This document shows, in pieces, positions 3,225 through 63,173 of a stretch of 64,000 nt of DNA (position 1 is its first letter; every line of letters begins with the position of its first letter). This DNA comes from Eledone cirrhosa (Eukaryota). The DNA lies in assembly GCA_964016885.1 (NCBI GenBank), contig OZ024742.1:125116001-125180000 (forward strand). The letters are read 5' to 3'. The position numbers and the translations under genes are program-made. The notes under the pieces were generated by a model. The model was given only the letters and a program-made list of their open reading frames with translations. It was not told where the DNA came from and made no database searches.

Positions 3225-3936
3225 ACTGGTGGCCTTGTGCCTAAATCAGAAGCAATGAGTTCAAATCTCACCGAAATGTGTTGGTCTTGTGCCTGAGTCA
3301 GAATCTATTACATGCGTGGATGATTTTGTAGCATGTAGTTACGGCCCTTAAACTTCTGAGTTCAAATCTAGCCGAGATTGGCTTTGCCTTTCATCCTTAC
3401 GTGGTCGATAAAATAAAGTTCCAGCTCCCTTAAAATTGTGGGATGTGTAGTGAAATTGTTGGATAAAATAGACACGTTTTCGGGGTAGGATCAAAACTAT
3501 ACGAATTTGAGTGTGGAGAATATTTCTGATTTAGGCACAAAGCCAGCAATTTTACGGGAGGAGAAAGTTGATTAAATCAGCCTCGGTGCGTTACTGGTAC
3601 TTTATTTTATCGACCTCGTAAGAAGAAATAGTAAAGCTAATCTCGGCGGGATTTGCACTCAGAAGATGAAAGAACGTAACTGTGCCGCAAAGCATATTGT
3701 CCGACGCTCTAGCGATTTTATCAATCCACCAACTTAATGTAAGTATATAATTGTTTCTACTTTTGGGACAAGGCAAGCAATTAACTTAGTGCATTACTGG
3801 TACTTTATTTTAACGATCCCTTAAGGATGAAAAGCAAAGTTAACCTCGGCGGATTTGAACTCAGACCATAAAGGGCCTTAACTCTTTTCTGCAAAGCATG
3901 GCGTCCATCCCTGTACCGATACAGCCAATCCACCGC
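3225..3936. mobile_element. SINE cluster (+ copy ~3315-3440; - copies ~3520-3730 and ~3748-3936)
   Basis: Same B-box, core and tail motifs. Confidence 0.8.
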
Positions 3937-7227: not shown

Positions 7228-7264
7228 GTTTTACCGGTTGCGCATTTCTAATGCTTTTCAAAAA
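7228..7264 (-). ncRNA. Degenerate U3-A8 hammerhead (family C relic)
   Basis: ttt-TTGAAAA-gcat tagaa atgc-GCAA-ccgg-TA-aaa. Same layout as 50827-50864 with a compensated stem II (gcat/atgc vs gcag/ctgc). Confidence 0.55.
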
Positions 7265-7329
7265 TAATTTTGAGATAGAGCGTCCGTGATGTTTGCTCTG
7301 ATCTGTATTTTATATATATATATATAAGA

Positions 7330-7953: not shown

Positions 7954-8011
7954 ATACTATGATCATTTCAATGACCGGGTTCCGTATGAATCCGGTGATA
8001 TCATCAGGTAT
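7954..8011 (-). ncRNA. Type I hammerhead (family D)
   Basis: atac-CTGATGA-tatcaccgg..ccggtcatt-GAAA-tgatca-TA-gtat. Confidence 0.8.
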
Positions 8012-10990: not shown

Positions 10991-11026
<36 letters not shown>

Positions 11027-11398
11027 ATATATGTGTATATATATGTATATGTATGTATGTGTGGATGAAGGTATGTGTGTATATATAGGTGTAAGTGCAC
11101 TAAATCCCTTTCTATCAATCTCCCCTCTCCTACCTTCCACAGGAAGATATATGTATGTTTATTGCTTCCACCCCCTCACTGACCATCTGGCCATTGCTAA
11201 ATTTGACCTTTATAAATTAACCCACACGCCCAAATAACTTTTCATTCACTACCAGAAAGGGACCCAGCAGTCAACGAGCTGCTAAACGAGCTGCTACCAA
11301 GATGAAAACTACTGTGAAATCCCACAATGAATATTATACTTGAATTTTCAAATCTCAAATTTTAACTCTTCTTATTATTAATTTTTCTTAATATTAAT

Positions 11399-11448
11399 CA
11401 ACATTTGAAAAGATGGCTTTTGCAGACCCATCGAAACCGGTCATGTTG
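11399..11448 (+). ncRNA. Type I hammerhead with U3-A8 core (family E)
   Basis: caacat-TTGAAAA-gatgg cttttgcagac ccatc-GAAA-ccgg-TC-atgttg. Perfect 6-bp stem I and 5-bp stem II. Confidence 0.85.
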
Positions 11449-11551
11449 TATACCCTTTATTATTTCCTTACCTTATAAAATTAGATGTTTTTTCACAAAA
11501 AAGTATTCTGTCTCATATATATTCCATGTGCCATTACCAACCTCAATTTTC

Positions 11552-11656
<105 letters not shown>

Positions 11657-11920
11657 GGAAAAAATGAAATGAAATTTCATTTCTCACTCTTAGTACGGCT
11701 GTTACTTAAATATAAGTATGTATAGGTACATACATATATGTATTCAGACGTACAGTAGTATGTATATATATATACATACATGCGCACATATATATATGTA
11801 CCTATGGATTCACCGAACATTTATTATAATGCTCGGTGTGTTTGTAAACAAATATCCCGTATTAAGCCGTACAGTGTCTAGCAACCATCGCTGCTCATTT
11901 GTTCAACACTGACAAAGGAA

Positions 11921-11961
11921 CGCTGTACTAGTTTCAAGCTTATTAGCTATCGTCAGCAACG
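11921..11961 (-). ncRNA. Type I hammerhead (family F)
   Basis: cgttg-CTGACGA-tagctaataagctt-GAAA-ctag-TA-cagcg. Confidence 0.85.
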
Positions 11962-12459
11962 TATACGTTCCTGCCAGATGGTTGACCGTCTGAAAGTATA
12001 TACTTTCCTTATGCATATTACCGGCTAAGCAGCCTACTTTGCATATCGAGTGAGTTAATCGGCCAGCGCACCGAAAACGATAAACGGAAAAAATGAAACG
12101 AAATTTCATTTCTCACTCTTAGTATGGCTGTTACTTAAATATAAGTATGTATACGTACATACATATATGTATACAGACGTACAGTAGTATGTATATATAT
12201 ATATATACATACATGCACACATATATATATATGTACGTATGGATTTACCGAACATTTATTATAATGCTCGGTGTGTTTATAAACAAACATCCCCGATTAA
12301 GCCGTACAGTGTCTAGCAACCGTTTCATTTTTTCCGTTAATCATTTTCGGTACCCCGGCCGATTAACTCACTCGATATGCAAAGTAGGCTGCTCAGCCGT
12401 TAATATGCATAAGGAAAGTATATACTTTCAGACGTTCAATCATCTGGCAGGAAGTTATA

Positions 12460-12500
12460 CGTTGCTGACGATAGCTAATAAGCTTGAAACTAGTACAGCG
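12460..12500 (+). ncRNA. Type I hammerhead (family F)
   Basis: cgttg-CTGACGA-tagctaataagctt-GAAA-ctag-TA-cagcg. Confidence 0.85.
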
Positions 12501-12706
12501 TTCCTTTGTCAGTGTTGAACAAATGAGCAACGATGGTTGCTAGACACTGTACGGCTTAATTCGGGATGTTTGTTTACAAACACACCGAGCATTAAAATAA
12601 ATGTTCGGTGAATCCATACGTACATATATATATATGTGTGCATGTATGTATATATATATACATACTACTGTACGTCTGTATACATATATGTATGTACGTA
12701 TACATA

Positions 12707-18839: not shown

Positions 18840-19040
18840 CAATAATGGTTTCTGATTAGGAAGAATGCCAACAATTTTGGAGGAGGAGAAAGACGATCGA
18901 ATCGACCCCAGTGGGTAACTGGTACTTTATTTTATTTACCCATAAGAAGAAAGGCAAAGGTAACCTCGGCGGGATTTCAACTCAGAACGTTAAGGACCGG
19001 CCTCTATGCTGCAAAGCATGTTTACCGCCGATCTATAGAT
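18840..19040 (-). mobile_element. SINE
   Basis: Core and B-box motifs. Confidence 0.8.
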
Positions 19041-24049: not shown

Positions 24050-24901
24050 TCCCAGTATTAGTCGGGTGCTTTTTTGTATTGACCTCGAAATGATGAAAAG
24101 CAAAGTCGACTTTGCTGGGATTGGAACTTAAAGAGCAGAGTTGAAACGAATGCCGCAAAGCACTCTATCCGACCTTCTAATGACTCTGTTAATTCGCGGC
24201 ACCATTGATATAAATGAGATATTGTTGATTAGATATTAGATGAGTAAATGTTATTATATATAATTGTGTATATATTCATTTTAAATTGTAATAACATGTA
24301 ATGTGAAAAGTGTTTGTACCAACATAACTATAATAATTGTTTCTTCTATTGGCACAAGGCCAGCAATTTTCCCAGTACATTACTGGTACTTTATTTTATC
24401 GACCCCGTAAGGAGGAAAGGCAAAGTGAACCTCGGCGGAATTTGAATTCACATTATAAAGGGGTGTAACTCTATGCTGCAAAGCATGGCGTCGGACCTTC
24501 TGCTGATACTGCCAAAACCATAAAAATTGTTTCTACTTTTGGCACAAGACCAGCAATACCCAGTGCATTACTGGTACTTCATTTTATCGACCCCGTAAGG
24601 ATGAAAGGCAAAGTTAACCTCAGCTGGATTTGAATTCAGATCATAAAGGGCCGTAACTCTATGCTGCAAAGCATATAAATAACACTATAATAATGATCGA
24701 TCATTATATTGATTTGGGCGGTGAATTGGCAGTATTGGTAGCGGGTCAGACACGCTTTCCAGCGTAGTTACGTCCCTTTACGCTCAGAGTTCAAATCCCG
24801 CTGAGGTTAACTTTGCCTTTCATCCTTACAGGGTCGATAAAATAAAGTACCAGTTATGTACTGGGTAATTGCTGGCCTTGTGCCAAAAGTAGAAACAATT
24901 A
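24050..24901. mobile_element. SINE cluster (- copies ~24050-24205, 24333-24518, 24525-24675; + copy 24716-24901)
   Basis: Core and tail motifs. Confidence 0.85.
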
Positions 24902-25388
24902 TATTGATTTGGATTCTATATGAAATTCCTTTATCTATAATACCAATGTTGCAAAGTCTTATTTTACAAACATATATTTTCTTAGGTATTATTGCAGCGT
25001 TTGTAACATATTTATAACGATTTATACGAATTCTTTTCTTTCAAAAGGTTATCTAATTTGAGCTTTCATTGCTATTAGGTTTCTAAAGTTATTTATGATT
25101 TCATATTATAAACACGATCCAACGTGTGCGAAATTATACACAATTGAAATTTAAATGTATGTTTATACCATGAGATCTACATTGCACAAAGGTACATCCT
25201 CCTTAGATTTATTCTCAAAATAAATTCTGCAGAGTATATCTAAATAAATAGAAAAAATAATAATTGTAATTGTTCACCGAGCACTGTGTAAAGTGTGCCT
25301 ACTTTATGTGGAAATATTCAACGACGACATGCTAAAGATTGTTCCTCCAAAGGGTAATAGATTTTACGTCTTATAATGTATAGTTAAA

Positions 25389-25520
25389 TAATTGTTTCTA
25401 CTTTTGGCACAAGGCCAGCAATTATCCCAGAGCATTACTGGTACATTATTTTATCGACCTCGTAAGGATGATGGGCAAAGTTAACCTCGACGGGATTTGA
25501 ACTCAGAACGTAACGGGCCA
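25389..25520 (-). mobile_element. 5'-truncated SINE
   Basis: Tail, core and B-box. Confidence 0.85.
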
Positions 25521-26049
25521 TATGGTTACGTTAAACAAGATCTACTTTAATTCATACAGCTTTGATCAACTCGATATTATAATAGACTATTCATCAACAA
25601 TATACCCAATATTTGAATCGAATACGCCAATAAGGAGTTCTTAACTGAAATTTGCATGCAAATACTGTCCTGTCAGACTTCAGTTTGCCTTCCAACATGG
25701 ATGATGAGTTATTTAACACTAAAATGCATTATTTAACAATTATTGCCAAAATTATATGAATCACGTTAACATACGACATCACTTGATTAGTAAGCGTATC
25801 GTAATCTGGATAAAATAAGCACCCAGATCGCATCGCTCTTAAGGTATTATCTGAAAAAATTATGAAACGTCAGCTCTCAATTGGGAATATTACTACTCTC
25901 CAAATGTATTAACATAATGAACAAAACACATCGCACAGTATAGTACAAATGCATATATTTTTATGTATTTACTTGATTGTACTTGTTTCATAAAATACGC
26001 CTCCACTAGGAAACATCGTCAATTATTTCCCCAAATTCCCATTAATATT

Positions 26050-27038
26050 TCTAACAAATAATTGTTTCTACTTTTAGGCACAAGGCCAGCAAATACTCAG
26101 TGCATTACTGGTACTTTATTTTATCGACCCCGTAAGGATGAAAGGCAAAGTCAACCTCGGCGGGATTTGAACTCAGATCGTAAAGGGACGTAACTATGCT
26201 GGAAAGCATGGCGTCCGACCCTCTACCGATACTGCCAATCCACCGCGCTTTCTAACAAATAATTGTTTCTACTATTGGCACAAGGCCAGCAATAAGCCAG
26301 TACATTACTGGTACTTTATTTTATCGACCGCGTTAGGATGAAAGGCAAAATTAACCTCGGCGGGATTTGAACTCAGAATGGCAAGGACCGTTCTAACAAA
26401 TAATTGTTTCTACTTTAGGCACAAGGCCAGCAATTACCCGGTGCATTACTGGTACTTTATTTTATCGACCCCGTAAGGATGAAAGGCAAAGTCAACCTCG
26501 GTGGGATTTGAACTCAGATCGTAAAGGGACGTAACTATGCTGGAAAGCATGGCGTCCGACCCTCTACCGATACTGCCAATCCACCGTTCTAACAAATAAT
26601 GGTTTCTGATTTGGGTCAAGGGATATGTGATTTAATCGACACCAGTTTGTTACTGGTACCTATTTTTTCTGCACCGTAAGATTGAAAGACAACGATAACC
26701 TCGGTGAGATTTCAACTCAGAACGTAAAGAACCGTAACTAAATACTGCAAAGCACGTTGTCCGACCTCCTACCGACATTGCCAATCAACCACCGACGTGT
26801 CTAACAAATAAATTATGATTTCTAGTATAGGCCAGTAATTTAGGGGGAGGCGCAAGTCGATTAAATCGACCCAGTACGTTACTGGTGCTTTATTTTATCG
26901 ACCCCGTAACGATGAAAGGCAAAGTTAACCTCGGTTTGGACTCAGACCGTAAAGGACAGTAACTATATGTTGGAAACCATGGTGTCAGACTCTCTACCGA
27001 TACTGCCAATCAACCCACGTCGTGTCTAACAAATAAAT
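26050..27038 (-). mobile_element. Array of five tandem SINEs separated by tctaacaaataa
   Basis: The motif recurs near 26050, 26250, 26392, 26588, 26800 and 27025, with a SINE between each pair. Confidence 0.9.
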
Positions 27039-30863: not shown

Positions 30864-30906
30864 GTCAAAGTTCTTTCGTCACACAGTCTGTGACCTCTTC
30901 ATTGAC
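30864..30906 (-). ncRNA. Hammerhead (family G), C3 mutated
   Basis: gtca-ATGAAGA-ggtcacagactgtgtgac-GAAA-gaac-TT-tgac. Confidence 0.6.
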
Positions 30907-32002
30907 TGGGGATTCTTTTCTTTGTTTTTGTGCCTCTCCTTTGTTCTGTCCTACGCCATCTTGTTTTTGTGCGTGCTTAGTTTGCGCATGCGTTACATCC
31001 GGGTGTCTGTGTGTGTTTATATTCGTTTATTTATTTGTTTATTTACATGTTACTGGTTGGTTGTTTGTTCTATGTGCGTGTGTGTTTTCATTTTGTCCTT
31101 AATTGTAAGTTGTGATGTTGCTGTTCCACTCATGTTTCTATTTAATTTTGGGTGTAATTCATTTATGTTTATTGCTTCTGTGATTTGTCTAAATATTGCG
31201 TCTTTTCTGTGTGTAGATTCTATTTTTATTTCTATGTTCTCTAATTTACCCTTATGTTCTATTTTAGCATGTTGGTAGAGTATAGATGATTCTTTACTAT
31301 CTTGAAGGTCTCGCCAGTGTTCATTTATCCGTTCCCCTACATTACGAGCTGTCTCACCTATGTACACTATAATTTTATCTCTACATTGTCCTTCAGTACA
31401 TCTTATGCTATATACTACATTTCTAGTTTTACAGTTAATATGGGGGCTTAATTTACAGATTATACATTTCTTATCTATACAGGGAGGTCTTTGAAAAGGG
31501 TATGTCTAGCTAATAAGTGTTTTTATAGAGGTACCTGGTCTTTCTACTATCTTAATATTGAGTTTATGTTTATCTAGTGCCCTTCTAAATTTGTAAGCTA
31601 ATTCACCTCTAGGGGTTGTATCGATGAACATTACACTCTGGTATTTATTGCTATCATACCATGAGTTTATTCTATTAGCCTTATTCTTAGTTCTTTCTAT
31701 TCTATTCCAAAATTTGCTCCTATACAAGGGGCAGGTCCCATTACAACCAAAATTAAATAGAAAACATGAGTGGAACAGCAACATCACAACTTACAATTAA
31801 GGACAAAATGAAAACACACACGCACATAGAACAGACAACCAAACAGTAACATGTAAATAAACAAATAAATAAACGAATATAAACACACACAGACACCCGG
31901 ATGTAACACATGCGCAAACTAAGCACACAACACACACACAAAAACAAGATGGCGTAGGACAGAACAAATGAGAGGCACAAAAAACAAAGAAAAGAATCCC
32001 CA

Positions 32003-32045
32003 GCCACTGAAGAGGTCACAGAATGTGTGACGAAAGAACATTGAC
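32003..32045 (+). ncRNA. Hammerhead (family G), cleavage site mutated
   Basis: gcca-CTGAAGA-ggtcacagaatgtgtgac-GAAA-gaac-AT-tgac. Confidence 0.6.
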
Positions 32046-32199
32046 AATATATAGACAACCATCTGGTTGTGGAACCAACCAACCAACCGGAAATTTATAA
32101 ATAAATTCCTAAATTTATAAATGTATTATAATAAATTGAAGTGAAAGCAACTGATGGGTGTGTTTCTTATTGGCAACATGACCCTCCCAAAGTATAACA

Positions 32200-34420
32200 A
32201 TATATCCATGTTTTGTTTCATTGAGCATTTTACTTAATGGTATAAGTGAGATGCAGAATAAAAGCGGTGATAAAGAGTCACCCTGAAAAATTCCACAATT
32301 AATATTAACTTCTCCAGCTTCCAGTGATTTTGTTTCACTATTTAAAAGGAGTGTCGTTTTCCAAGTCTTCATACTGAATGACAAAAACCTCCTGACAACG
32401 GGTGATATTTTGAAAATCTCTAAACATTTTTCAATCCAACTGTGTGGCAAAATATCGAATGCTTTTTTATAATCTATCCAAGCAATTGATAGATTTTTGT
32501 GTCTATTATGACAATCTTCCAGTATCATTTTGTTAACCAAAAGTTGATCCTTACAGCCATATGAGCCTCGTTTACACACTTTCTGCTCAATGGGAAATAG
32601 GTCATTTGTTATCAGGTGGCCATATGTATATTCAGTTAGGACTGATGTTAACACTTTATACATTGTGGTCAAGCAAGTTATCGGTCTGTAATTTTTGGGA
32701 TTGTTTGTCTCATCATTCTTCGGAAGCAGGAATGTAATGCCGTTAACTAGCCATGATGGTATCTTTTCTGGCTCCTTAACTATTTCATTGTAAAGTTGGG
32801 CTAACAGCTTATGAGACTCTGTGAAGGCATTTATCCAAAATTTTGTATTTTGTCTTTTCCTGGGGATTTCCATATGCTGGTTTTTCTAAGAGCCAAACGC
32901 AACTGTTCAACTGTTATATTTTCCCATATTTGTTCCTCAAGGTGAGCTGTATCTTTCATTTGTCTGTCTATCCATGGGGCATGTATATTATAAACTTTTT
33001 CTTCGGCCCAGATCTTTTCCCAGAATGCTTGCACTTCCTCCTTGGGTGGTATTGATTTAGCAGTTATTGTTGACTTACCAATTTTTCTGTAGAAGTTTTT
33101 TTGGTTGTTTTTGGACATATTATTGTCCTTATAGATCGTTTTTCAAAGCGCCTTATACGAGCAGCTTTGGCCTACACTTTTTGCTTGATTATTTATATCA
33201 GTATGTCAATGTCACTTGTTGATTTTATACTGTACTTTCTTTTCAATTTTCTAAGTTTAGTTTGTTTAACATGTTCACCTACTTTATAGTTTGTTAAAAT
33301 TTCTATGTCAGATCGGAGAAGGTTTATTTGGCGATTGATGTTCTCTTGCCAAGTAGATTTCTTGTGGGAATTGCTTTGTTTTTTTCATTTTCCCTCCACA
33401 TAAGTGAGTGGTGATTTTAGCCGATGCATAATAGAGATGATTTCAATCAGTAATGTTTAGTTTGTTTGTGATGATAATGTTTTTGAGAATTATGTTAGTC
33501 TTGTGTATTATCTTTTGGTTCTGTTTGGAGTTCTGGATTTAGGGAGGATGTCTCGTTCCCCCATGTCAGATTCTTTCATTTTCAACCATTCGATCATAAT
33601 TTCATCCTTCAAGTTGGCAAGTTCATTCTCATTCATTTCTTTATCATTTACGATCTCATTGTTTTCATTTTGAGATTCATCTTGAGCATGCACTCCCTCC
33701 ACTTTTTCGATCCTTTCTTTAATTTGTTCTGTTGTCAGTGATTCAGCCCCAACCCTGGGATTCGAAGTGTTACAATTGACCTCGTTTTCACTGACACATG
33801 TTTCATTTTCCCTTCGCAGACTATGTGCTAATAGCTTGATCTGATCAATTTCTATATCAGTTAGTAACTTTTTTTAACAATATTTCTTCGTATATTGGCT
33901 AGTTTGTTACTGTCAATATAGCCTCTGTTTTCGGGATGTTTCTTTTTCCAGTTGATATATGTCTGTTCTGTATTCGATGTATTTGATGGGTAGTACATGG
34001 CAGTGTAGAAAGCCTCAAGGACTTCTTTATTATCTTCCCTTGACCATTTTTCTCTCTTTTTCTTTGGATTTCTTGGTGGTGAGCATGGAGAGCCAACAGT
34101 AGGAGTATTCCGGTTATGGGAGGTCTCCAGCTCCGAAATGATGGGAAGGTTTGAACCATTAGCTGATTTTTCGACCCCAGTCTGGTTCCTCTCTGAGGGA
34201 CGCGGCCTTTTTTGACCCGGGTGACGGCTGATACGGTATGAGATTTTATCATTTGACATTTACTTTATTTTGTCGCGTTTTATCCTTATCCGCCAAGGGT
34301 AATCATTTCGTGTTACCACTTCTAGGACGAGTGTCAACCCAGACTAGAGGGGTCGTCCTCCCCTAGAGACACGGCTATTCCCCGCCGGCCGCCATCCCGG
34401 TATTTCTTGGTCACGGGGTT
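32200..34420 (-). mobile_element. R4/Dong-like non-LTR retrotransposon, 5' part, frameshifted and 3'-truncated within RT
   Basis: N-term KWSREDNKEV..KLANIRRNIVKK. RT motifs KSPGKDKIQNF, NYRPITCL, GCKDQLL, WIDYKKAFD and GIFQGDSLSPLLF. It ends before the YxDD motif. Confidence 0.85.
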
Positions 34421-35934: not shown

Positions 35935-35971
35935 GTAAACCTTCCCTCTCTCTCTCTCTTAGCTTACCAAT

Positions 35972-38830
35972 ATGGCCATATTAAGAGTAGGAAGTTTATA
36001 TGTTCGCGGCCTGGGGTCACCCTGGAAGCAGGGTCGCCTGCTCAACGACCTCCGGTCGCTGGAAATAGATGTGATTGCCGTAAGCGAGACCAGAATTTCC
36101 GACACGCGCGCACTAGCCCCCATTTTCGACGACTATCAGATCTACGCATCTGTTAGCAGGCCGGGAACGAGGGGTGGGGTGGCAGTGCTGTTTAGGAAAG
36201 GACTGGATCTCGAGATAAGGTCGATCTTCCGCGACCCGGACGGTAAGTTGGTGGTCTTGGATGTGAGCAGTAGCGAAGGTGGTGCCTTTAGACTGCTGGC
36301 CGTCTACGCCACTACAGCGGCCGGACGACCTGACTTCTTTAGGCGCTGGAGACCTATCTGGGTACGTCTCGCCCTTTTCTGTTAGCGTGGGACTGGAATG
36401 GCATCTTAGACGAACGCTGGGGTTGTGTGGGAGTAGCCGATAGGAGCAGGGGGTGCAAAGGCCTCAAGCACCTACTAAGCCAGTTCCAACTGTCTGACAG
36501 GTATCGACTAGATTTCCCCAATGTGCCAGTAATAAATGTGCCAGTAATAAAACCACAATTCCGTCTTTGGCGGACCGAGACGGACACGAGATAAGCGATT
36601 CCAAGCGGATGTGTGAGGCCTTTCGCCAGCACTTTGCTCGGTTGTTCAGAGAGAGTGGCGAGTCAGAGAGAGTAGCGGATTTCAGTCGCTACCTTGACGG
36701 CTTGCCGCGTCTCTCGACGGTCGACGCTGAGCGCAGCGAAAGGCCGATTACTTCAGCCGAAATTCAGGACGCCCTTGTCGGCTGCATGAGGCGCAAGTCA
36801 CCCGGTTTGGATGGCCTGCCCTACGAGCTTTACGTAAATATGCCAGACTTGTTCTCCGAACTCCTCGAAGCACTCTACTGCAACTGGCAGCAGAATGGGA
36901 GTATTCCCAGTTCTGTGAGCAGGAGAGTGGTGACACTGATAAGGAAAGACGAGAACAAGAGGGATACATTAGACAACTTCAGGCCCATAACTCTGCTCAA
37001 CACAGAGTTTAAGATTTTGGCCAAGGTGTTAGCAAAGAGATTGGCGCTTGTCGTCGAGGATTTGGTTGGGGAGGCGCAAACTTGCGCAATCCCATCCAGG
37101 TCCATACACGACAATCTCCACCTCATGCGATACATCATAAGGAGGGTAGGGTGTAAACCTGGCTTCGGTGGGGCACTGATCAATTTAGATCAATCGAAAG
37201 CATTCGATAGGTTCGACCATCGGTATCTGGAGTTTGTCCTCAAGGCAGCTGGCTTCGGCCCCGTCTTGAGAAGCTGGATCGTTGCAATGCACAGCGACAC
37301 ATGCTCGGTGGTCAAGGTTAATGGCCACCTCTCGGAACCATTTCGGCTCTCACGATCGGTCCGTCAAGGGTGCCCTCTCTCTTCCCTTCTGTACGTATTG
37401 ACTCTCGAGCCTTTACTGCGGAAGCTGGAGCTGTTGCAGGGCATCCCGTTCGAACCGGGACGTAGAAGGGCGGTGTCGGCTTATGCGGACGACATCACCG
37501 TGATGGTGTCGAACACCTCTGATATCGAGGTGGTCGGCAGCTTATTGAAGGAATATGAAAGGTTGACAGGAGCCAAACTTAACCCGGAAAAGTCGGTGGG
37601 CTTGCAGCTCGGAACCTGGAGAGGCCAGCCCATGCCGTCCAACAGCGTCGTGGGGCGCTGGACGGACGGACCGGTATAGTTGCTCGGGGTTTGGTTCGGA
37701 CCAGACCTCCGGGTGGAAAAGAATTGGGACGAGGTAACGAGCAGAGTAGCCAGTCTCACCCAAAAATGGGCTGGGAGGAAGCTATCACTGAAAGGTCGCG
37801 CGGAGGTGGCGAATGCGTACATCGCGTCCGTCATCTACTACCGCCTGACCGTCGTGCCGTGCCTCCGTCCGCGCCTCGTCAAGCTGGAACGGCTCCTCTT
37901 CAAATTCTTGTGGAGGGGACAAGTTCCGTTGGTGAGGCGGTCCATCTGCTGCCAGCACACTCTAGGCGGAGGGCTGGGCATGCCGTGGCTAATGATGGGC
38001 AGACATGCGTTGAGGCTGCGACATCTCCAGATATTCTGCCTCAACGGTGAACAGGTGTGGTCGCCGTTTGTCAGACGGGCCTTTCCGCAGCTCATTTCTT
38101 TGACCGAGCTGCAGTCCTGTGTCAAGAAGAGACCGAGACTGGGTGACTGGCACCTGGAATGTTGCCAGGCACTCACTGCCCTCTACCAAGCGGACAATTC
38201 GATCAGTGGAACCTCCACTCTCGAGTTCTATAGAGGATTAGTGGTGGGCAAGTGCGATGACGCACTCGGAGAAGCTTTGGGCATCGATGAAGTCGAACTT
38301 AGCAGTCTGTAACGGAGGACAATTTCCAGAAATCCCTCGCTTGGCAGTGCTACCGGGGGGCACTGCAGGTTCGGGATAAACTCTACAGGCACGGAAGTGC
38401 TGTCAGACGGACCTGCCCAAGATGCGCACAGAACGACGAAACCATTCTGCACGCACTTGTCCAATCTCCGTGTATTACTGACTTGTGGAGTTATGTCGAA
38501 CAGCTACTGTCGCGTGTGGAACGAATCCGGCTATCGGTCGAGTCCATAGTAAAGATCGTTCCACCGCCTTCCTTAGGTCAGAAAGAGCAGGAAATTTTCC
38601 TCTGTCTGGTGGCAGTTGCGAAAGAGATTATATGGTGAACCAGGTTGAAAGGACTAAAGACAGACACTTTTCTCTTCGGCCAATCCCTCATCAACTTCTT
38701 CAAGTTTCACCTGGAAAGGAAGGTGAGGGTGGAGAGAGAAGTGCTGCTCCCCAGTACATTTGCTAAAAGGTGGGTGAATGTGGCGAGAATGGCTCGTGTG
38801 AATGGGCCTACTCTGACCATGCGCCTATAG
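35972..38830 (+). pseudogene. LINE ORF2 (APE endonuclease-RT-zinc finger), disrupted
   Basis: VGSLYVRGL..DVIAVSET; KSPGLDGL, NFRPITLLN, LDQSKAFDR, VRQGCPLS, AYADD; CPRCAQNDETILHAL. Stop at 37677, frameshifts and an internal deletion near 36550. Confidence 0.92.
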
Positions 38831-45502: not shown

Positions 45503-45644
45503 CACTGCTTTACGATCGTTTCTAGATGATGATAATACATTCTAGCTATACTCAGTAATTGATCTATGTAAGGTTATTTACAAACTATCAGATAAAGAGA
45601 ATATTTACTTACATGCATATCATCAGCTGTTTTCAAAAGCAATA
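45503..45644 (-). ncRNA. U3-A8 hammerhead with ~107-nt stem II domain (family I)
   Basis: tattgctt-TTGAAAA-cagctgatgat..atcatcatcta-GAAA-cgatcg-TA-aagcagtg. 8-bp stem I. Confidence 0.72.
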
Positions 45645-45676
45645 ATAATGTTATTCAATAATGATTTTATTAAGAA

Positions 45677-46589
45677 CTAGCAGTAAAGCCCGGCGTTGCT
45701 CGGGGTCGCTCAGTAGCTGTGTTAAAGTTACAATGTTAAGTTTCTTTTTTGGTTTAAAAACTGTAGTGTCTACTGTGCAGACTTCCATGTGGTCTTTTTG
45801 ATTAATATTCCCTCAACCAACAATATGCCTTATGAAGTTAAGAAAACATAACGATAACCCGAATGTTATAGCAAAAGAGGATGCTGGGGATAAAAACTGC
45901 ACTGATTATTTATTAACAAAGATCGAAAATGTAAACACTGCAACGCAGAGAAAAACATTAGCGTAACCAAATTATCAGTTATGTCTGTCTGCACGCCTAT
46001 ATCACCTCTCTGCACGACTATCTGTCTGCACGCCTATATCACCTCTCTGCACGACTGTCTGTCTGCACGCCTATATCACCTCTCTGCACGACTATCTGTC
46101 TGCACGCGTATATCACCTCTCTGCACGACTGTCTGTCTGCACGACTGTCTGTCTGCACGCCTAACGACGAAATATTTTCTTGTTTTACGTAGTCTGTAAA
46201 TAGACTTGTTTTCAAGTAAAAATATTGTTTTAAAATGCTTTTAAATGGAAATGAAGCAAAACGGAAGCTTAGTGTTCGAACTGATGAATTTTGCAGGTCA
46301 ATATTTTGCTGGCTCGACAACTGTTAAAGCCAGCGTAATTGTTTACGTAAGACGCTCAATGTAAACAGAACAAAGGGAAATAACTGATAACTTACGCTCA
46401 AAAATCGATACATTATATTCGATTTCGTCACATAGGGCGGGTCAATTTTTAATTTTTTTTTCCGATGTCTTCGCTAGGGCTCAATGTACAAGTATAGCAA
46501 TTTCGGTGCAATTCCGTGAGAGATTCTAAGAGGAGATGTGTGCCAAAAATCGATAGACAGACAGACAACCACAGTTTTATATATATAGA
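45677..46589 (-). mobile_element. Non-autonomous Helitron copy 1
   Basis: Minus strand starts TC(tatatatataaaa) and ends with hairpin cccgagcaacgccggg plus CTAG. Contains an internal 37-bp minisatellite and (GTCT)n. Confidence 0.88.
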
Positions 46590-46728
46590 TGATACAGTTT
46601 TATGTGAAATGGTACAGTTTTATATGGAATGATACAGTTTTATGTGAAATGGTACAGTTTTATATGGAATGATACAGTTTTATGTGAAATGGTACAGTTT
46701 TATATGGAATGAAACAGTTTATATGTAA
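46590..46728. repeat. 20-bp minisatellite (gatacagttttatgtgaaat)
   Basis: ~7 units between Helitron copies. Confidence 0.9.
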
Positions 46729-47722
46729 CTAGCAGTAAAGCCCGGCGTTGCTCGGGGTCGCTCAGTAGCTGTGTTAAAGTTACAATGTTAAGTTTCTTTT
46801 TTGGTTTAAAAACTGTAGTGTCTACTGTGCAGACTTGCATGTGGTGTTTTTGATTAATATTCCCTCAACCAACAATATGCCTTATGAAGTTAAGAAAACA
46901 TAACGATAACCCGAATGTTATAACAAAAGAGGATGCTGGGGATAAAAACTGCACTGGTTATTTATTAACAAAGATCGAAAATGTAAACACTGCAACGCAG
47001 AGAAAAACATTAGCGTAACCAAATTATCAGTTATGTCTGTCTGCACGCCTATATCACCTCTCTGCACGACTGTCTGTCTGCACGCCCATATCACCTCTCT
47101 GCACGACTGTCTGTCTGCACGCCTATATCAACTCTCTGCACGACTGTCTGTCTGCACGCCTATATCACCTCTCTGCACGACTGTCTGTCTGCACGCCTAT
47201 ATCACCTCTCTGCACGACTGTCTGTCTGCACGCCGATATCACCTCTCTGCACGACTGTCTGTCTGCACGACTGTCTGTCTGCACGCCTAACGAAATATAC
47301 AGATACATATATTTTAAATAAACTTATATAATTTTTGCTTTTTTTTTACGAAATATTTGCTTGTTTTACGTAGTCTTTAAATAGACTTGTTTTCAAGTAA
47401 AAATATTGTTTTAAAAGGCTTTTAAATGGAAATGAAGCGAAACGGAAGAAAATGTAAAGAGAACGTAAGACGCTACGCTGAATGTAAACAGAACAAAGGG
47501 AAATAACTGATCACTTACGCTCAAAAGTCGATACATTATATTCGATTTCGTCACATAGGGTGGGTCAATTTGAAATTTTTTTTTTCCGATGTCTTCGCTA
47601 GGGCTCAATGTACAAGTATAGCAATTTGGGTGCAATTCCGTGAGAGATGTGAGAGATTCTAAGAGGAGATGTGTGCCAAAAATCGATAGACAGACAGACA
47701 ACCACAGTTTTATGTATATAGA
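46729..47722 (-). mobile_element. Non-autonomous Helitron copy 2 (variant internal segment)
   Basis: Same termini, with more 37-bp units. Confidence 0.88.
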
Positions 47723-47942
47723 TGATACAGTGTTATATGAAGAGATACAGTTTTATGTGTAATAGTACAGTTTTATATGTAATGATACAGTTTTATGTGA
47801 AATGTGACAGTTTTATGTGTAATAGTACAGTTTTATATGTAATGATACAGTTTTATATGTAATGATACAGTGTTATATGTAATGATATAGTGTTATATGG
47901 AAAGATACAGTTTTATATGTAATAGTACAGTTTTATATGTAA
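47723..47942. repeat. 20-bp minisatellite
   Basis: ~11 units. Confidence 0.9.
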
Positions 47943-48855
47943 CTAGCAGTAAAGCCCGGCGTTGCTCGGGTTCGCTCAGTAGCTGTGTTAAAGTTACAAT
48001 ATTAAGTTTCTTTTTTGGCTTAAAAACTGTAGTGTCTACTGTGCAGACTTGCATGTGGTGTTTTTGATTAATATTCCCTCAACCAACAATATGCCTTATG
48101 AAGTTAAGAAAACATAACGATAACCCGAATGTTATAACAAAAGAGGATGCTGGGGATAAAAACTGCACTGGTTATTTATTAACAAAGATCGAAAATGTAA
48201 ACACTGCAACGCAGAGAAAAACATTAGCGTAACCAAATTATCAGTTATGTCTGTCTGCACGCCTATATCACCTCTCTGCACGACTGTCTGTCTGCACGCC
48301 TATATCACCTCTCTGCACGACTGTCTGTCTGCACGCCTATATCACCTCTCTGCACGACTATCTGTCTGCACGCGTATATCACCTCTCTGCACGACTGTCT
48401 GTCTGCACGACTGTCTGTCTGCACGCCTAACGACGAAATATTTTCTTGTTTTACGTAGTCTGTAAATAGACTTGTTTTCAAGTAAAAATATTGTTTTAAA
48501 ATGCTTTTAAATGGAAATGAAGCAAAACGGAAGCTTAGTGTTCGAACTGATGAATTTTGCAGGTCAATATTTTGCTGGCTCGACAACTGTTAAAGCCAGC
48601 GTAATTGTTTACGTAAGACGCTCAATGTAAACAGAACAAAGGGAAATAACTGATAACTTACGCTCAAAAATCGATACATTATATTCGATTTCGTCACATA
48701 GGGTGGGTCAATTTGAAATATTTTTTTCCGATGTCTTCGCTAGGGCTCAATGTACAAGTATAGCAATTTCGGTGCTATTCTGTCAGAGATTCTAAGAGGA
48801 GATGTGTGCCAAAAATCGATAGACAGACAGACAACCACAGTTTTATATATATAGA
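47943..48855 (-). mobile_element. Non-autonomous Helitron copy 3
   Basis: Near-identical to copy 1. Confidence 0.88.
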
Positions 48856-49736: not shown

Positions 49737-49860
49737 CATATACATATATATACATACACACACACATACACATATATATACATATATACATGTGTGAGTA
49801 TAAGTACACTCCTCATACATGTGCACATACAGATAAACACTCATACACCTATACTCACAT

Positions 49861-50290
49861 GGCTGTAATTGCAGAAATAGAAGCATTTGCTCCTTAAATG
49901 GAAACTGTTTGATTAATAATGTAATATATAAATGCCACTGTGTCTACTACAGACTCCAACAAAACATATATAGGATCTACATCAAACACATTTAAGAAAG
50001 GATTTTACGCACACTCTACTTATTTCAACAATACTAAACTAGCTACCACCACATCTTTAACTGAAGCGGTAAATAATTATAAAAAGAAAAGAATAGATTT
50101 CAAGTTATCGTGGAACACCATTCTACAAAGAACTCCATATATTGGTAACATGAGGGAATGCAGATTATGTTCAGGGGAGATCGTAGAAATTACTAAATCT
50201 ATTGACGATTTATTAAATAAAAGACAGGAATTGATCATAGTTTGTAATCACCGTATACGGAAAACATTTAAATACTATAAACCTAATTAA
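49861..50290 (+). pseudogene. Naiad-type PLE GIY-YIG endonuclease remnant
   Basis: [24 protein letters not shown] / YIGSTSNTFK..H..CRLCSGE..LLNKRQELIIVCNH, with one frameshift. Confidence 0.85.
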
Positions 50291-50737
50291 ATACTATAAA
50301 CCTAATTAAATATTCTAAATAGCAACTCACTATAATTCCATATAGAGTAACATTTATTAGTACCTCTTTTCCCTAATTATATGCATTCATGCTTATCTTT
50401 TGCCTCTTAATATTTTAGCTTCCTAAGATTTATGCGTTAATGACTAAAGGCAACAAGATACACAACCACCCGTAATTGCATGAGTAAATATATATCTATC
50501 TATGATATGGAAATATATTTATGTGTGTGTGTGTATATATATGTATATGTGTGTATATGTATTTATGTATGTGTATATGTGTGTATATATATATATATGC
50601 TTGTATATGTGTGTATGTGTATGTATGTATATATATATCTGTATATATATATATATATATATAAAGAAAAAGGGATGAAATCGAAAATGCAACTGAAGTC
50701 TTATTTATTTTTTTTAAATATATATATTTATTTGGTT

Positions 50738-50775
50738 CCTTTACCGGTTTCGCAGTTCTTCTGCTTTTCAAAAGG
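50738..50775 (-). ncRNA. U3-A8 hammerhead (family C)
   Basis: cctt-TTGAAAA-gcag aagaa ctgc-GAAA-ccgg-TA-aagg. Confidence 0.82.
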
Positions 50776-50826
50776 TGAGTTGAGATGGAGGGTCTGTGGT
50801 TTTTACAGACCCTCCATCTCAACTCA

Positions 50827-50864
50827 CCTTTTGAAAAGCAGAAGAACTGCGAAACCGGTAAAGG
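50827..50864 (+). ncRNA. U3-A8 hammerhead (family C)
   Basis: cctt-TTGAAAA-gcag aagaa ctgc-GAAA-ccgg-TA-aagg. Confidence 0.82.
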
Positions 50865-51001
50865 AACCAAATAAATATATATATATATATTTTTTTAAAT
50901 AAGACTTCAGTTGAATTTTCGATTTCATCTCTTTTTCTTTATACTTCCACTCGTGTAGGACACCTCGGTTATTTTTCATTTTGTAAAAAAAAACCTCACT
51001 A

Positions 51002-51036
<35 letters not shown>

Positions 51037-51177
51037 TGTATGTGTGTATGACTGTTTATGTGTGAGTATGTGCACATGTATGAGGAGTGTACGTATACTC
51101 ACACATGTATATATGTATATATATATATATGTATGTGTGTGTCTGTGTATATAAATATATATATATGTATATGTATG

Positions 51178-53436
<2,259 letters not shown>

Positions 53437-53445
53437 GTATATGTG

Positions 53446-53476
<31 letters not shown>

Positions 53477-53831
53477 ATATATATATAAATACATATATGT
53501 ATGTATGAGTGTGCGTGCATATATATATGTATATATGTGGGTATAGATGTGTATGTGTGGATATATATATGTATGGATATGTATTTATATGATTATATGC
53601 ATGCGTGTAAATGTGTATTTAGATTTGCATCTATTTGTGCGTATGTATATTTTTGGTTGGATATCAATTTAACTGTACATCTCTCTCTATATAGTGTGGG
53701 TATATCACTTTTCATCTGAACACCATATGAAAAAAACAATTTGATTCGTTAGTTCTTCAACTGTCTCCAAATAAGGACATGATACTAACATACTACTAAT
53801 TCTGAATAAAATCATTATTGAATAAAATTAT

Positions 53832-53973
53832 TATTGCTTTTGAAAACAGCTGGTGATATGCATGTAAGTAAATGTTCTCTTTATCTGAGAGTTTGTAAAT
53901 AACCTTACATAGATCAATTACTGAGTATAGCTAGAATGTATTATCATCATCTAGAAACGATCGTGAAGCAGTG
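53832..53973 (+). ncRNA. Family I hammerhead, cleavage site mutated to UG
   Basis: tattgctt-TTGAAAA-..-GAAA-cgatcg-TG-aagcagtg. Confidence 0.65.
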
Positions 53974-57237: not shown

Positions 57238-57335
57238 ACCCGACGGCAGAGCTCAAGCCGTTTCGACGACTATTTCTGGACAAAAGTAAGAGTTTTTTTA
57301 GTCTGGTAAATAAATAGCCGAACTTTTCAAGGGGT
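57238..57335 (-). ncRNA. U3-A8 hammerhead, long stem II (family A)
   Basis: acccc-TTGAAAA-gttcggctattt..aaatagtcgtc-GAAA-cggc ttgagctct gccg-TC-ggg. Confidence 0.8.
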
Positions 57336-58382
57336 ACTTACTTATATGGGAAGATTGTAGTTGTCAAGAGCATTGGTCAACATTTGTTGCAGACACAGAA
57401 AAGTCTATCATGGCAGTGGGTGCGGGGTGGGGGAGGTTGAACCTTCGTAAGTTGATCCTTCGTAAACAAATGCTGTTTACAAAGGATCAACTCCTAAAAA
57501 AAAAAGACGAACTGGTAACTGCATGCAAACACAGTTTGTGGAAGACTTACCTCGCCCTCAAACCCCCTAATGATCCGGGTGGGTAGACAAGGGCTGAAAC
57601 ACCCCCACTTGCTGAATAAGATAGGGAAAACCCCAACTTATATAGGTAGATCTACCTCTTTTCTTTTCCTCTATGTTTTCTTCTTCCCTTTGTCTCCTCC
57701 TATAACTTCTTTCCACCACCGATCTTCTTCCTCGTTCGTTTCTTGTTTTTTTTCCCTTTCGCCTACTGCGAGGCAGCCCATCTTTAGCCTCAGTACCCCC
57801 ACCCCAGGAACTTATAGATAGCATTGGCCGATTACGCTATACTAACTATTCATAGCAGCTGTGTTAGACCCCAGAGATGTGGTATTAATTTTTAATACCC
57901 AATTCTAAAATTTCAATAATTCTCATCTAGCAACTCATTCTATAGAATTGGCCGAAAAAGCAGAACCAACTAAATATAGCAGCTGTGTTAGACTCCTTAG
58001 TTTTTGTTTTATTTCACTTCTCACTTTCCAATCATACATTCTGATATATCTTTCTCTCATTTTTTATTATATTCTTTTTTATCATATTTTTTCATTGTCC
58101 CCTAAGCCCATTTGATTTACCAGATCTATAACGTCTCTCCTCCTTTTTCTAAAGAAACCTGTTTTCGCCTACCTCCTCCAGCCTACTTTCATACACATTC
58201 CTTAGAATTTGCTGTGTAGATTTCACCTTCAACGCTTGACCAGCTCTCCCCACTCCCCTATCGTTCTACAGGCAAGTTCAGCCACCCCCACCCCAGACCC
58301 ACTGCCATGATAGACGTTTCTGTGTCTGCTACAAATGTTGACCAATTTTCTTGACAACTACAATCTTCCCAAATAAGGAAGT

Positions 58383-58481
58383 ACCCCTTGAAAATTTCGG
58401 CTATTTATTTCCCGGACTAAAGAAACTCTTACTTTAGTCGAGAAATAGCCGTCGAAACGGCTTGAGCTCTGCCGTCGGGGT
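58383..58481 (+). ncRNA. U3-A8 hammerhead, long stem II (family A)
   Basis: acccc-TTGAAAA-tttcggctattt..aaatagccgtc-GAAA-cggc ttgagctct gccg-TC-ggggt. Confidence 0.8.
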
Positions 58482-61188: not shown

Positions 61189-63173
61189 AACGCACACATG
61201 AACCTGTCTGCAAATGCGCCAGCACACAGCGCCATGTGAGAACATAAAAACCTAGTGGGTAAGTAAGGACAAAAGGGGAGTAAGATTGAAATGATAAACA
61301 CAATATTAAGAATAGGTAATGGAAAACATTGTTGTAAAAGGTTTGCGATGAGATCTAGATAAGAGTATCTAGTTAAAGAGTGAACTGAGTAAAGAATATA
61401 AGCGGTGCGTGTGTATGTGTAAAGAGTAAGGTAGAAAGTAGGGGGTATTATAAGTCAACTGAAAAAAAGTTTTAAATAATAGGAAAAAACTAATAAAAAA
61501 TATAAAGAGATATAAAAGGAGATGACAGAGAAAAAGTATATATGGGTAAGAAGTATCATTTCTTAGAGTAATAATATTCGTGGTGAGCGAAAGGCGTAAT
61601 GAGTAAAGAAGAAGCTAAAAGTGGTTGAATCATCGTAGGAATGTCAATCCAGTTAAAAAGTAGATGCGATTTCAGATGTGGACAACATCTGAAGATCTCG
61701 GTCTTGGAGTTGAGGCAAGTTGAAGGGGCTTTCAAATTTTGGAGAATTCTAAATTTTTCCGTGGTGCACAAACAACATTTCTATGAGCTCCTTTGGTATT
61801 CTCTTGATTAGTCTAAAATAGAGCAATCAATAGTGTACGAGATAGTTTTTGTCTTTGAATTCCCACACTTTCTTTGCAAGCGCCGTCGCTGTTCTTTTTT
61901 CAGAGTGTTTAAAAGAAGCGATATGTGCATAATACCTGGTTTTGAATATGTCCTGGGTCATGCCAACATATCGTTCACTCCTGGCTGGCTAGCTCGTTAT
62001 TAATCATCGGTGTCAATTTGGCCTCATACACAATGGATGTGGTATAACATTTACCCTGTAATGGGCATTCTATCGGCTTCCTGCAACTGCATCCTGGATT
62101 AACTCTCATACGATTAGAGTTGGTAATTTTAGTCTCCATTTGTGGACAGCAAGAGTAACTGATTTTGACTACATTTCTATTAAATATCTTATTATATCTA
62201 TGATTAGGGAGAAAATGTTTGTCTAGGAGGTCGAGGAATTTCCTTCCTACATTAGTTTTGAGTTAGAGAGAAGGGGGGTGTAAACCAAATAATTTATTTT
62301 TCTTTTCCTGTTATTGTGTTTAGTGTTAGAGGGAAGAATAGGAAAGTATTTAATATGTTCGGTGAAGCCGATGTTATTGAGGGCGTTATTATAATAAGTG
62401 GCGGCTTTGTTAAAATTGTCTATAGACGAAGATAAGGTAGATATCCTACGGCTAATGTTAGGAATAAGATTTTTAAAGACTATAGGTGGATGGCAAGATT
62501 CTTTGTGTATATATCTTACATGCTCGTTAGGTTTATGATAAGGTTTAACATACGCAGTAAGTAGATCAATATTATTATCAAGAGAGTTAGTATAAGTAAG
62601 ATTCGTATCTATAGTAATTTTAAGGTTTAGGTTAGCAGAGGCATTGATTAAATCTTTACGGAATTTATCAAGGTTATGGCCGTTGGTAGTATGAGAAATT
62701 ACCAAACCGTCGTCTCGGTATAAACCGATATTATGGCAAGGAAATTTATCTTTAAGTGTGTGGAGGAGGAATAATCCTACTACGTTGCATACATCAGCAC
62801 TATCATATGAGCCCATCGCAACATCAAAAGAGTTTTCAGGGCTTGACTTTTTAACCCAATATAGTTGTGCGTATGCGGTTGTATATATGCTTTTGTTTTT
62901 GTCTGTATAGTCTTACGTATGGTTTTGTATGCGTGTGTTGATTTCTTATTACGTGCATGTGCGCCAACGCATCTGTTTTTGTTTGTACGTAGGTTACGTA
63001 CCAATGGTCTTTTTTGTAGGGTTTATGTGTGTGCTAGTATATTTGGTTGTATGCATGTTTTTATATACGTGTGTATGAGTGTGAATGTGTATGTGTATAT
63101 GTATTTTTGCACGCTTGTGTATGTGTATGTGGATATGTACGTATGTTTATTTTATAATTTATATTTTTGTTTT

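Follow-up and report, generated by a model that had tools for sequence, protein, structure and literature searches.

Probable C3-G8 to U3-A8 core swaps in hammerhead motifs of several Penelope-like element lineages in Eledone cirrhosa

Several lineages of Penelope-like elements (PLEs) in the genome of Eledone cirrhosa carry hammerhead motifs with U3-A8 in place of C3-G8 in the catalytic core. We consider it probable that these are type I motifs in the 3' pseudo-LTRs (pLTRs) of the elements, that the pair was swapped in several lineages and that the motifs likely cleave weakly, as dimers or with the help of a protein. The analysis started from a window of 64,000 nucleotides (contig OZ024742.1, positions 125,116,001 to 125,180,000) in this 3.0-Gb, AT-rich genome, which is rich in microsatellites. 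A sequence-only reading of the window had proposed eight TTGAAAA sites as compensated hammerhead cores of four families (E, C, A and I). TTGAAAA is present at all eight places, which are 8 of its 39 occurrences in the window (18.6 expected), and all eight are hammerhead motifs at PLE 3' ends. The motifs and the associated parts of their elements are:

7228..7265, minus strand: C-related motif, U3-A8, with GCAA replacing GAAA, broken core (site 7255)
10997..11554, plus strand: 3' end (pseudo-LTR) of a family E PLE, 5'-truncated copy, Neptune-type, by match to the repeats at locus L031
11399..11448, plus strand: family E minimal type I hammerhead motif, core UUGAAAA at 11405-11411
45504..45643, minus strand: family I hammerhead motif, U3-A8, core intact (site 45630)
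49855..50290, plus strand: family I GIY-YIG endonuclease remnant, Hydra-type (80% match)
50738..50775, minus strand: family C minimal hammerhead motif, U3-A8, inverted partner of the next (site 50765)
50827..50864, plus strand: family C minimal hammerhead motif, U3-A8, arm of the inverted pair (site 50831)
53833..53972, plus strand: family I hammerhead motif, U3-A8, G at position 17 (site 53840)
57238..57335, minus strand: family A hammerhead motif, U3-A8, inverted partner of the motif at 58388, left end approximate (site 57324)
57467..57583, plus strand: remnant of the endonuclease-coding end of family A, upstream of the motif at 58388 (tblastn, 82% over 39 aa)
58383..58481, plus strand: family A hammerhead motif, U3-A8, long stem II, Hydra-clade PLE (site 58388)

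The hammerhead frame is recognizable around all eight sites, but two of the cores are broken, by GCAA at 7255 and by G17 at 53840. The core N3 UGAN N8 A9...GAAA...UH is found in full in the E motif, both C motifs, both A motifs and the I motif at 45630. Given its G17, the motif at 53833..53972 is likely inactive; the GCAA replacement recurs in a C-related copy in locus L197. In the window E motif, stem I (CAACAT/ATGTTG, 11399-11404/11443-11448) has 6 bp and stem II (11412-11416/11428-11432) 5 bp; GAA follows at 11433-11435, and stem III is the palindrome ACCGGT (11436-11441), with C17 at 11442 and a predicted cut 3' of C11442. Stems I and II of the two intact C motifs have 4 bp each, and their stem III is ACCGGT as in E. 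Family I motifs have a 7-bp stem I, a stem II insert of ~105 nt and, again, a palindromic stem III, ACGATCGT. Family A has instead a stable 5-bp stem III hairpin, together with a 5-bp stem I and a stem II insert of ~55-59 nt; the fold of 58383..58481 has a z of -3.3.

Standard tools recover little of this. The Rfam hammerhead models gave no match at gathering score in the whole window and, in 11200-12600 at E up to 10, no match to the family E or C3-G8 motifs. Since minimal motifs of both kinds, C3-G8 and U3-A8, escape Rfam, its blind spot is not specific to U3-A8. In the window our strict descriptor recovered E alone and a relaxed one six motifs, and the long-stem and mismatched families required family anchors. 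Across the genome, controls for the family patterns gave 0-1 matches.

In AT-rich DNA the word TTGAAAA is frequent: 31 of the 39 window occurrences lie outside the cited set, most without hammerhead context, and the E 50-mer, besides lacking an Rfam match, folds no better than shuffles (z -0.24). That the hammerhead reading is due to chance is nevertheless scarcely credible, since the motifs hold a fixed position 3' of PLE ORFs and show compensatory changes. It is refuted by these changes and by two counts. In a 600-kb sample (60 stretches of 10 kb, spaced evenly along the four largest contigs) a structure descriptor gave 24 hits (17 C3-G8, 4 U3-A8) versus 1 on the reversed sequence, and the core with an ACCGGT tail occurs 23,832 times versus 288 for the control.

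The proposed PLE identity is borne out, the motifs lying in pLTRs or downstream of ORFs for reverse transcriptase (RT) and GIY-YIG endonuclease. An intact family E element (L031) has a 1,138-codon open frame with RT and GIY-YIG motifs, flanked by two 539-bp direct repeats that are 99.3% identical and each contain a hammerhead motif. The window E copy, which lies between TA/TG and TC/TA microsatellites, matches both repeats at 91% over 515 aligned nt. A first look for the family E region gave 721 candidates; identity was 98-99% in the 40 that were scored. Family C motifs are downstream of ORFs (L195, L097 and L034) that are 52-57% identical to that of E. Both families have a DKG/DKG-type RT and a CX4CxxC linker finger; the name Neptune is applied to them on the basis of this linker, which Nematis elements share, and is to be read as provisional, the trees having been built without reference sequences. 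A full-length family A copy (L185) is arranged motif-ORF-motif over 3.1 kb. Family A ORFs (L185, L184 and L187) carry RWR (RWK-like), DKT, CxCX5C, CxxC and CxH motifs in elements of ~3 kb with a short single ORF and (TA)n targets, and by these features, as the clade is defined in PMC8557442, family A is assigned to the Hydra clade. The family I motif follows, by 450-750 nt, a GIY-YIG endonuclease related to that of family A; its Hydra placement comes from the tree, its ORF having been read at the endonuclease end only.

Judging by strand and family, the endonuclease remnant at 49855..50290 and the 53840 motif probably belong to one insertion and are separated by other, nested elements. The order across 49855-53972 runs from the I endonuclease end through the inverted C pair and a Neptune-type C3-G8 element (motif at 51394, endonuclease at 52743-53188) to the I motif. 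Pfam recognized none of the four window PLE fragments, and the intact ORF fell just below the RVT_1 cut-off. The copies in the window are insertions that have been truncated or inverted, and they are probably non-functional in place. Exact patterns count 2,088 copies of E, 6,734 of C, 5,996 of A and, with a narrow pattern, 57 of I.

The four families had been described as independent, with otherwise unrelated helices. This does not hold for E and C, which share the ACCGGT stem III and have ORFs 57% identical. In the RT-endonuclease tree the two form a clade with a third U3-A8 family, T (98/99), apart from the C3-G8 family Q. Hence one origin suffices for E, C and T, and the four families represent at most three lineages. 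Judged from their protein sequences, A and I are separate lineages of the Hydra clade. The endonuclease tree of 27 Hydra-type rows, one of them dropped, groups I with C3-G8 sisters (100/99). A clade of A and I is rejected (p-AU 6e-7), at least two changes being needed within the Hydra clade, and a single U3-A8 clade that includes the Neptune-type families is rejected as well (p-AU 4e-76). The 3-8 pair has thus changed, in one direction or the other, at least three times among these PLE lineages, once on the E, C and T branch and at least twice in the Hydra clade; five rows of the Hydra tree have no known motif. The dropped row, L107, was a decayed family A endonuclease mispaired with the motif of another element. 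Hammerheads were sought for the related ORF families L233, L236, L237 and L247 and not found, and their rows are unlabelled. A further Hydra family (L031, L197, L152 and L068) also carries U3-A8, and the U3-A8 motifs of families outside the window include several further examples (L243:2855 and 3309; L298:4124; L031:1410, L068 and L152).

Protein trees would overcount the changes if U3-A8 had arisen once and spread among PLE families by exchange of 3' ends, and PLE copies nested in one another within microsatellites provide the opportunity. We regard this as very unlikely. The I motif aligns over its full length with those of its C3-G8 sisters, and the protein tree too makes them sisters of I (99/99), which contradicts exchange for I; the E/C, A and I motifs differ in stems I, II and III, and the two topology tests above speak against one U3-A8 clade.

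To estimate the share of U3-A8 in the genome, we counted core plus tail (N10-30, GAAA, SNNS, TH), using the reversed pattern as control. There were 105,559 C3-G8 matches against 6,061 in the control (excess 99,498) and 44,368 U3-A8 matches against 14,999 (excess 29,369). The mismatched classes gave 7,657 against 4,381 for C3.A8 (excess 3,276) and 12,599 against 7,011 for U3.G8 (excess 5,588). After control subtraction U3-A8 amounts to ~23% of the two paired classes, for a pattern that leaves out long stems II and other stem III lengths and takes in some non-hammerhead repeats, to which part of the U3-A8 and U3.G8 excess is due. In the 600-kb sample, anchors derived from families already known, one of them loose, located 74 motifs (60 C3-G8, 11 U3-A8 and 3 other) and none in the reversed sequence, a U3-A8 share of 15% (95% interval 8-25%). 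The share is therefore about one in five genome-wide, and the window, with 8 U3-A8 versus 9 C3-G8 motifs, overstates it. The earlier inference that CUGANGA searches would miss a large share of these ribozymes stands to the extent of ~15-23%, but the proportion suggested by the window is too high. Ribozyme censuses here need descriptors for U3-A8 and for long stems II; otherwise about a fifth of the motifs are lost. The novelty implied for the variant falls away: Cervera and de la Pena (2014; PMC4209133) give ~1,300 U3-A8 versus ~2,000 C3-G8 hits for PLEs of Schistosoma, with U3-A8 in the Cercyon PLEs of Schistosoma mansoni, and the same descriptor lesson was taught there.

Positions 3 and 8 covary. 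Were they independent, ~24,400 C3.A8 and ~26,700 U3.G8 motifs would be expected versus the 3,276 and 5,588 found, a five- to sevenfold deficit, although genomic copies are not independent events and the two-by-two table consequently reflects a few changes. The compensatory swap holds at the level of families, in the pattern counts and in the comparison of I with its sisters. Family C has 6,734 U3-A8 copies versus 17 that are non-U3, and 55 of the 57 family I copies are U3-A8. The 3' half of the I pattern matches 15,658 times; of 30 loci that were read, most belong to sister families with CTGAAGA. An alignment of I with these sisters (12 hand-picked rows, 7 with C-G and 5 with U-A at 3-8) also contains two stem I pairs that changed on both sides; 98.7% of its cells are paired, against at most 58% in slid controls. 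It represents one inherited event rather than twelve and shows the double swap within homologous ribozymes. In the I lineage and its C3-G8 sisters (45504-45643; L203-L232) the insert in stem II is branched, measures 100-115 nt and opens with C.A, two pairs and then a C.C mismatch; descriptors with a length limit would overlook these motifs regardless of the core.

Independent variation of positions 3 and 8 had been named as evidence against the proposal. Covariation prevails overall but fails in part of family A, where 1,488 of 5,996 copies (25 of the first 100 matches) are C3.A8. G8 forms number 48, 9 of them C3-G8, and a genome-wide search for an amplified C3-G8 descendant of the C3.A8 subfamily found none beyond these 9 copies. 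C3.A8 co-occurs with flanking variants in two or more backgrounds and is shared by inverted arms, which makes assembly homopolymer error unlikely as its source. Trees of family A DNA were made with positions 3, 7 and 8 masked from copies with enough ORF end (22 and 31 rows). In these, well-supported branches of C3.A8 rows make up a ladder within which the youngest U3-A8 copies nest, and a single U3-A8 clade is rejected (p-AU 9e-105); a distant outgroup failed to place the root of the 31-row tree. All eight C3.A8 loci that were fetched have interrupted or truncated ORFs and are mostly 88-95% identical to the young family, so that a mismatched master element is a supposition drawn from the copies. 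In one tandem copy, L288, the upstream repeat has U3 and the downstream repeat C3; other C3.A8 examples are L126, L143, L189, L190 and L286-L292.

We tentatively read family A as a compensatory swap in progress, possible though somewhat short of probable, in which C3.A8 would have persisted through a series of subfamilies and ~1,500 copies before U3-A8 was regained in the youngest. The C3.A8 core is nearly inactive in other hammerheads. Rescue of C3.A8 by A-to-I editing, which disfavours a preceding G, is not supported, as A8 mostly follows G. The tree suggests that the 3-8 pair is favoured but not required for the spread of family A. If true, this would be in vivo evidence that a PLE hammerhead is advantageous yet dispensable for retrotransposition, and would explain the frequent flips of the pair in PLEs. 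The C3.A8 phase may be the only part of our findings that is new; a search, mainly of the open literature, found no publication on an amplified mismatch subfamily or on the hammerheads of this genome. Lunse et al. reportedly described PLE hammerhead variants that cleave as dimers, and may already list such variants.

The perfect 6-bp stem I and 5-bp stem II noted for E are real in the window copy but do not describe the family. ATGTTG follows the cut site in one genomic copy, that at 11443-11448, versus ATTTTT in 2,103 copies including intact L031, so that stem I, of 4-7 bp in C, A and I, is mismatched in nearly all of E. Single changes toward pairing are rare; T-to-G, which improves pairing, dominates the rare variants at both stem I positions (7 of 11 variant copies have G at one, 32 of 37 at the other). 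One mutation on top of a minor subfamily, or quasi-palindrome correction, could account for the perfect stem. In the typical E stem I a C.U mismatch lies between two segments of 2 bp, and its predicted formation has P 0.0; neither form of E cofolds into the dimer geometry (P <=0.06). Two C copies, in contrast, cofold through ACCGGU with stems I and II kept (P 0.92-1.0). In the related families E2 and T, stem I has only the 2 bp adjoining the core. A helix I as short as 2 bp has a precedent in the Penelope element of Drosophila virilis (PMC4209133).

These stems bear on whether the motifs cleave at all. The U3-A8 lineages might be hammerhead-derived with negligible cleavage, kept as a protein-binding or dimerizing RNA structure or by slow drift. 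The mismatched stem I of 2,103 E copies, the 2-bp stems of E2 and T, the C3.A8 subfamily of A and the C-related family with GCAA all point this way, as do the weak in vitro activity described for minimal PLE motifs (PMC4209133) and the in vitro insertion of an anole PLE, which in the assays reported was independent of cleavage (PMC11167929). We judge it unlikely, because the full core (UGAN, A9, GAAA and UH) and a Watson-Crick 3-8 pair are kept at ~21-57% protein identity, the double swap separates I from its sisters, and the youngest A subfamily again has the pair. The matched natural sets, I versus its C3-G8 sisters and U3-A8 versus C3.A8 in family A, allow the need of cleavage for spread to be tested.

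If the motifs do cleave weakly, as we favour, each pseudo-LTR in the read-through RNA of tandem copies would be a cleavage site, and cutting there would free unit RNA. As E, C and I have only a palindrome as stem III, two copies on a tandem transcript would pair to give two active sites; family A, with its stable stem III, could fold as a monomer. The U3-A8 swap preserves Watson-Crick geometry. Activity would probably be low and may need the protein of the element, by analogy with the anole element PAc. If selection on cleavage is weak, the pair would be free to flip via a tolerated mismatch state, which fits family A. The inverted C and A pairs of the window would form hairpins on one transcript rather than ribozyme dimers.

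The window holds further elements. In its C3-G8 motifs at 8001, 10552, 11950, 12465, 14870, 39328 and 39652, U.U replaces G10.1-C11.1 at the base of stem II, a feature that recurs in three families and in the U3-A8 family T. A very abundant C3-G8 family is present at 32007 and ~30870-30900, with an endonuclease remnant at 31050-31736 and a partly palindromic stem III (AGAACT, AGGACT or AGAGCT). The stretches 32115-34264 (minus strand), 35963-38638 (plus) and 61770-62912 (minus) contain broken LINE-type RT elements and a Hydra-type PLE remnant, the latter with a decayed C3-G8-type motif downstream; Pfam RVT_1 matches two LINE-type frames. A SINE-like repeat has at least 14 copies, some in tandem (867-1196, 3559-3905, 18931-18999 and 24326-26964), and 45665-48470 comprises blocks of 37-bp and 20-bp minisatellites, repeated three times.

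The closest known system is Cercyon of S. mansoni as described in PMC4209133, which likewise has minimal type I motifs in pLTRs, a palindromic or absent stem III and U3-A8, with many motifs found after a change of descriptor and mostly as single truncated copies. Unlike Cercyon in that description, the motifs here occur in another host, in two PLE clades and in tandem repeats, with stem II inserts of ~55 and ~105 nt, a monomer-type stem III in family A and an amplified C3.A8 subfamily. Perreault et al. (2011; PMC3088659) report the same natural compensatory covariation and state that it is active in vitro; there U3-A8 is rare, with several examples, whereas here it makes up about a fifth of the motifs of one genome. 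Family A resembles the Hydra clade of Craig et al. (2021; PMC8557442) in its motifs, ~3 kb length and (TA)n insertion, and E and C resemble the Neptune clade in their DKG/DKG-type RT and CX4CxxC finger, these motifs being the basis of the clade names; the Hydra motifs described there are canonical, whereas here A, I and a third family carry U3-A8. We also consulted PMC6765202, PMC13282606, PMC6155905 and PMC7151607.

The anole Poseidon element PAc (PMC11167929) also has a pLTR hammerhead, assisted by protein, but with a C3-G8 core and demonstrated activity. Its 3-8 pair was tested by single mutants and double rescue; in the experiments described, ribozyme mutants had no effect on in vitro insertion and no reads ended at the cut site. 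Finally, ~300-bp tandem type I units in this genome resemble non-LTR retrozymes as these are described in PMC7229834 and bioRxiv 10.64898/2026.07.22.740005. Such retrozyme-like arrays are found at L199:1800-3870, L250 and L201. The 316-bp units of L199 are U3-A8 and the 311-bp units of L250 C3-G8, 74% alike over 145 nt, and related single motifs occur in L058 (C3-G8) and L100 (C3.A8). Unlike retrozymes, the four families of the window are the ends of protein-coding PLEs.
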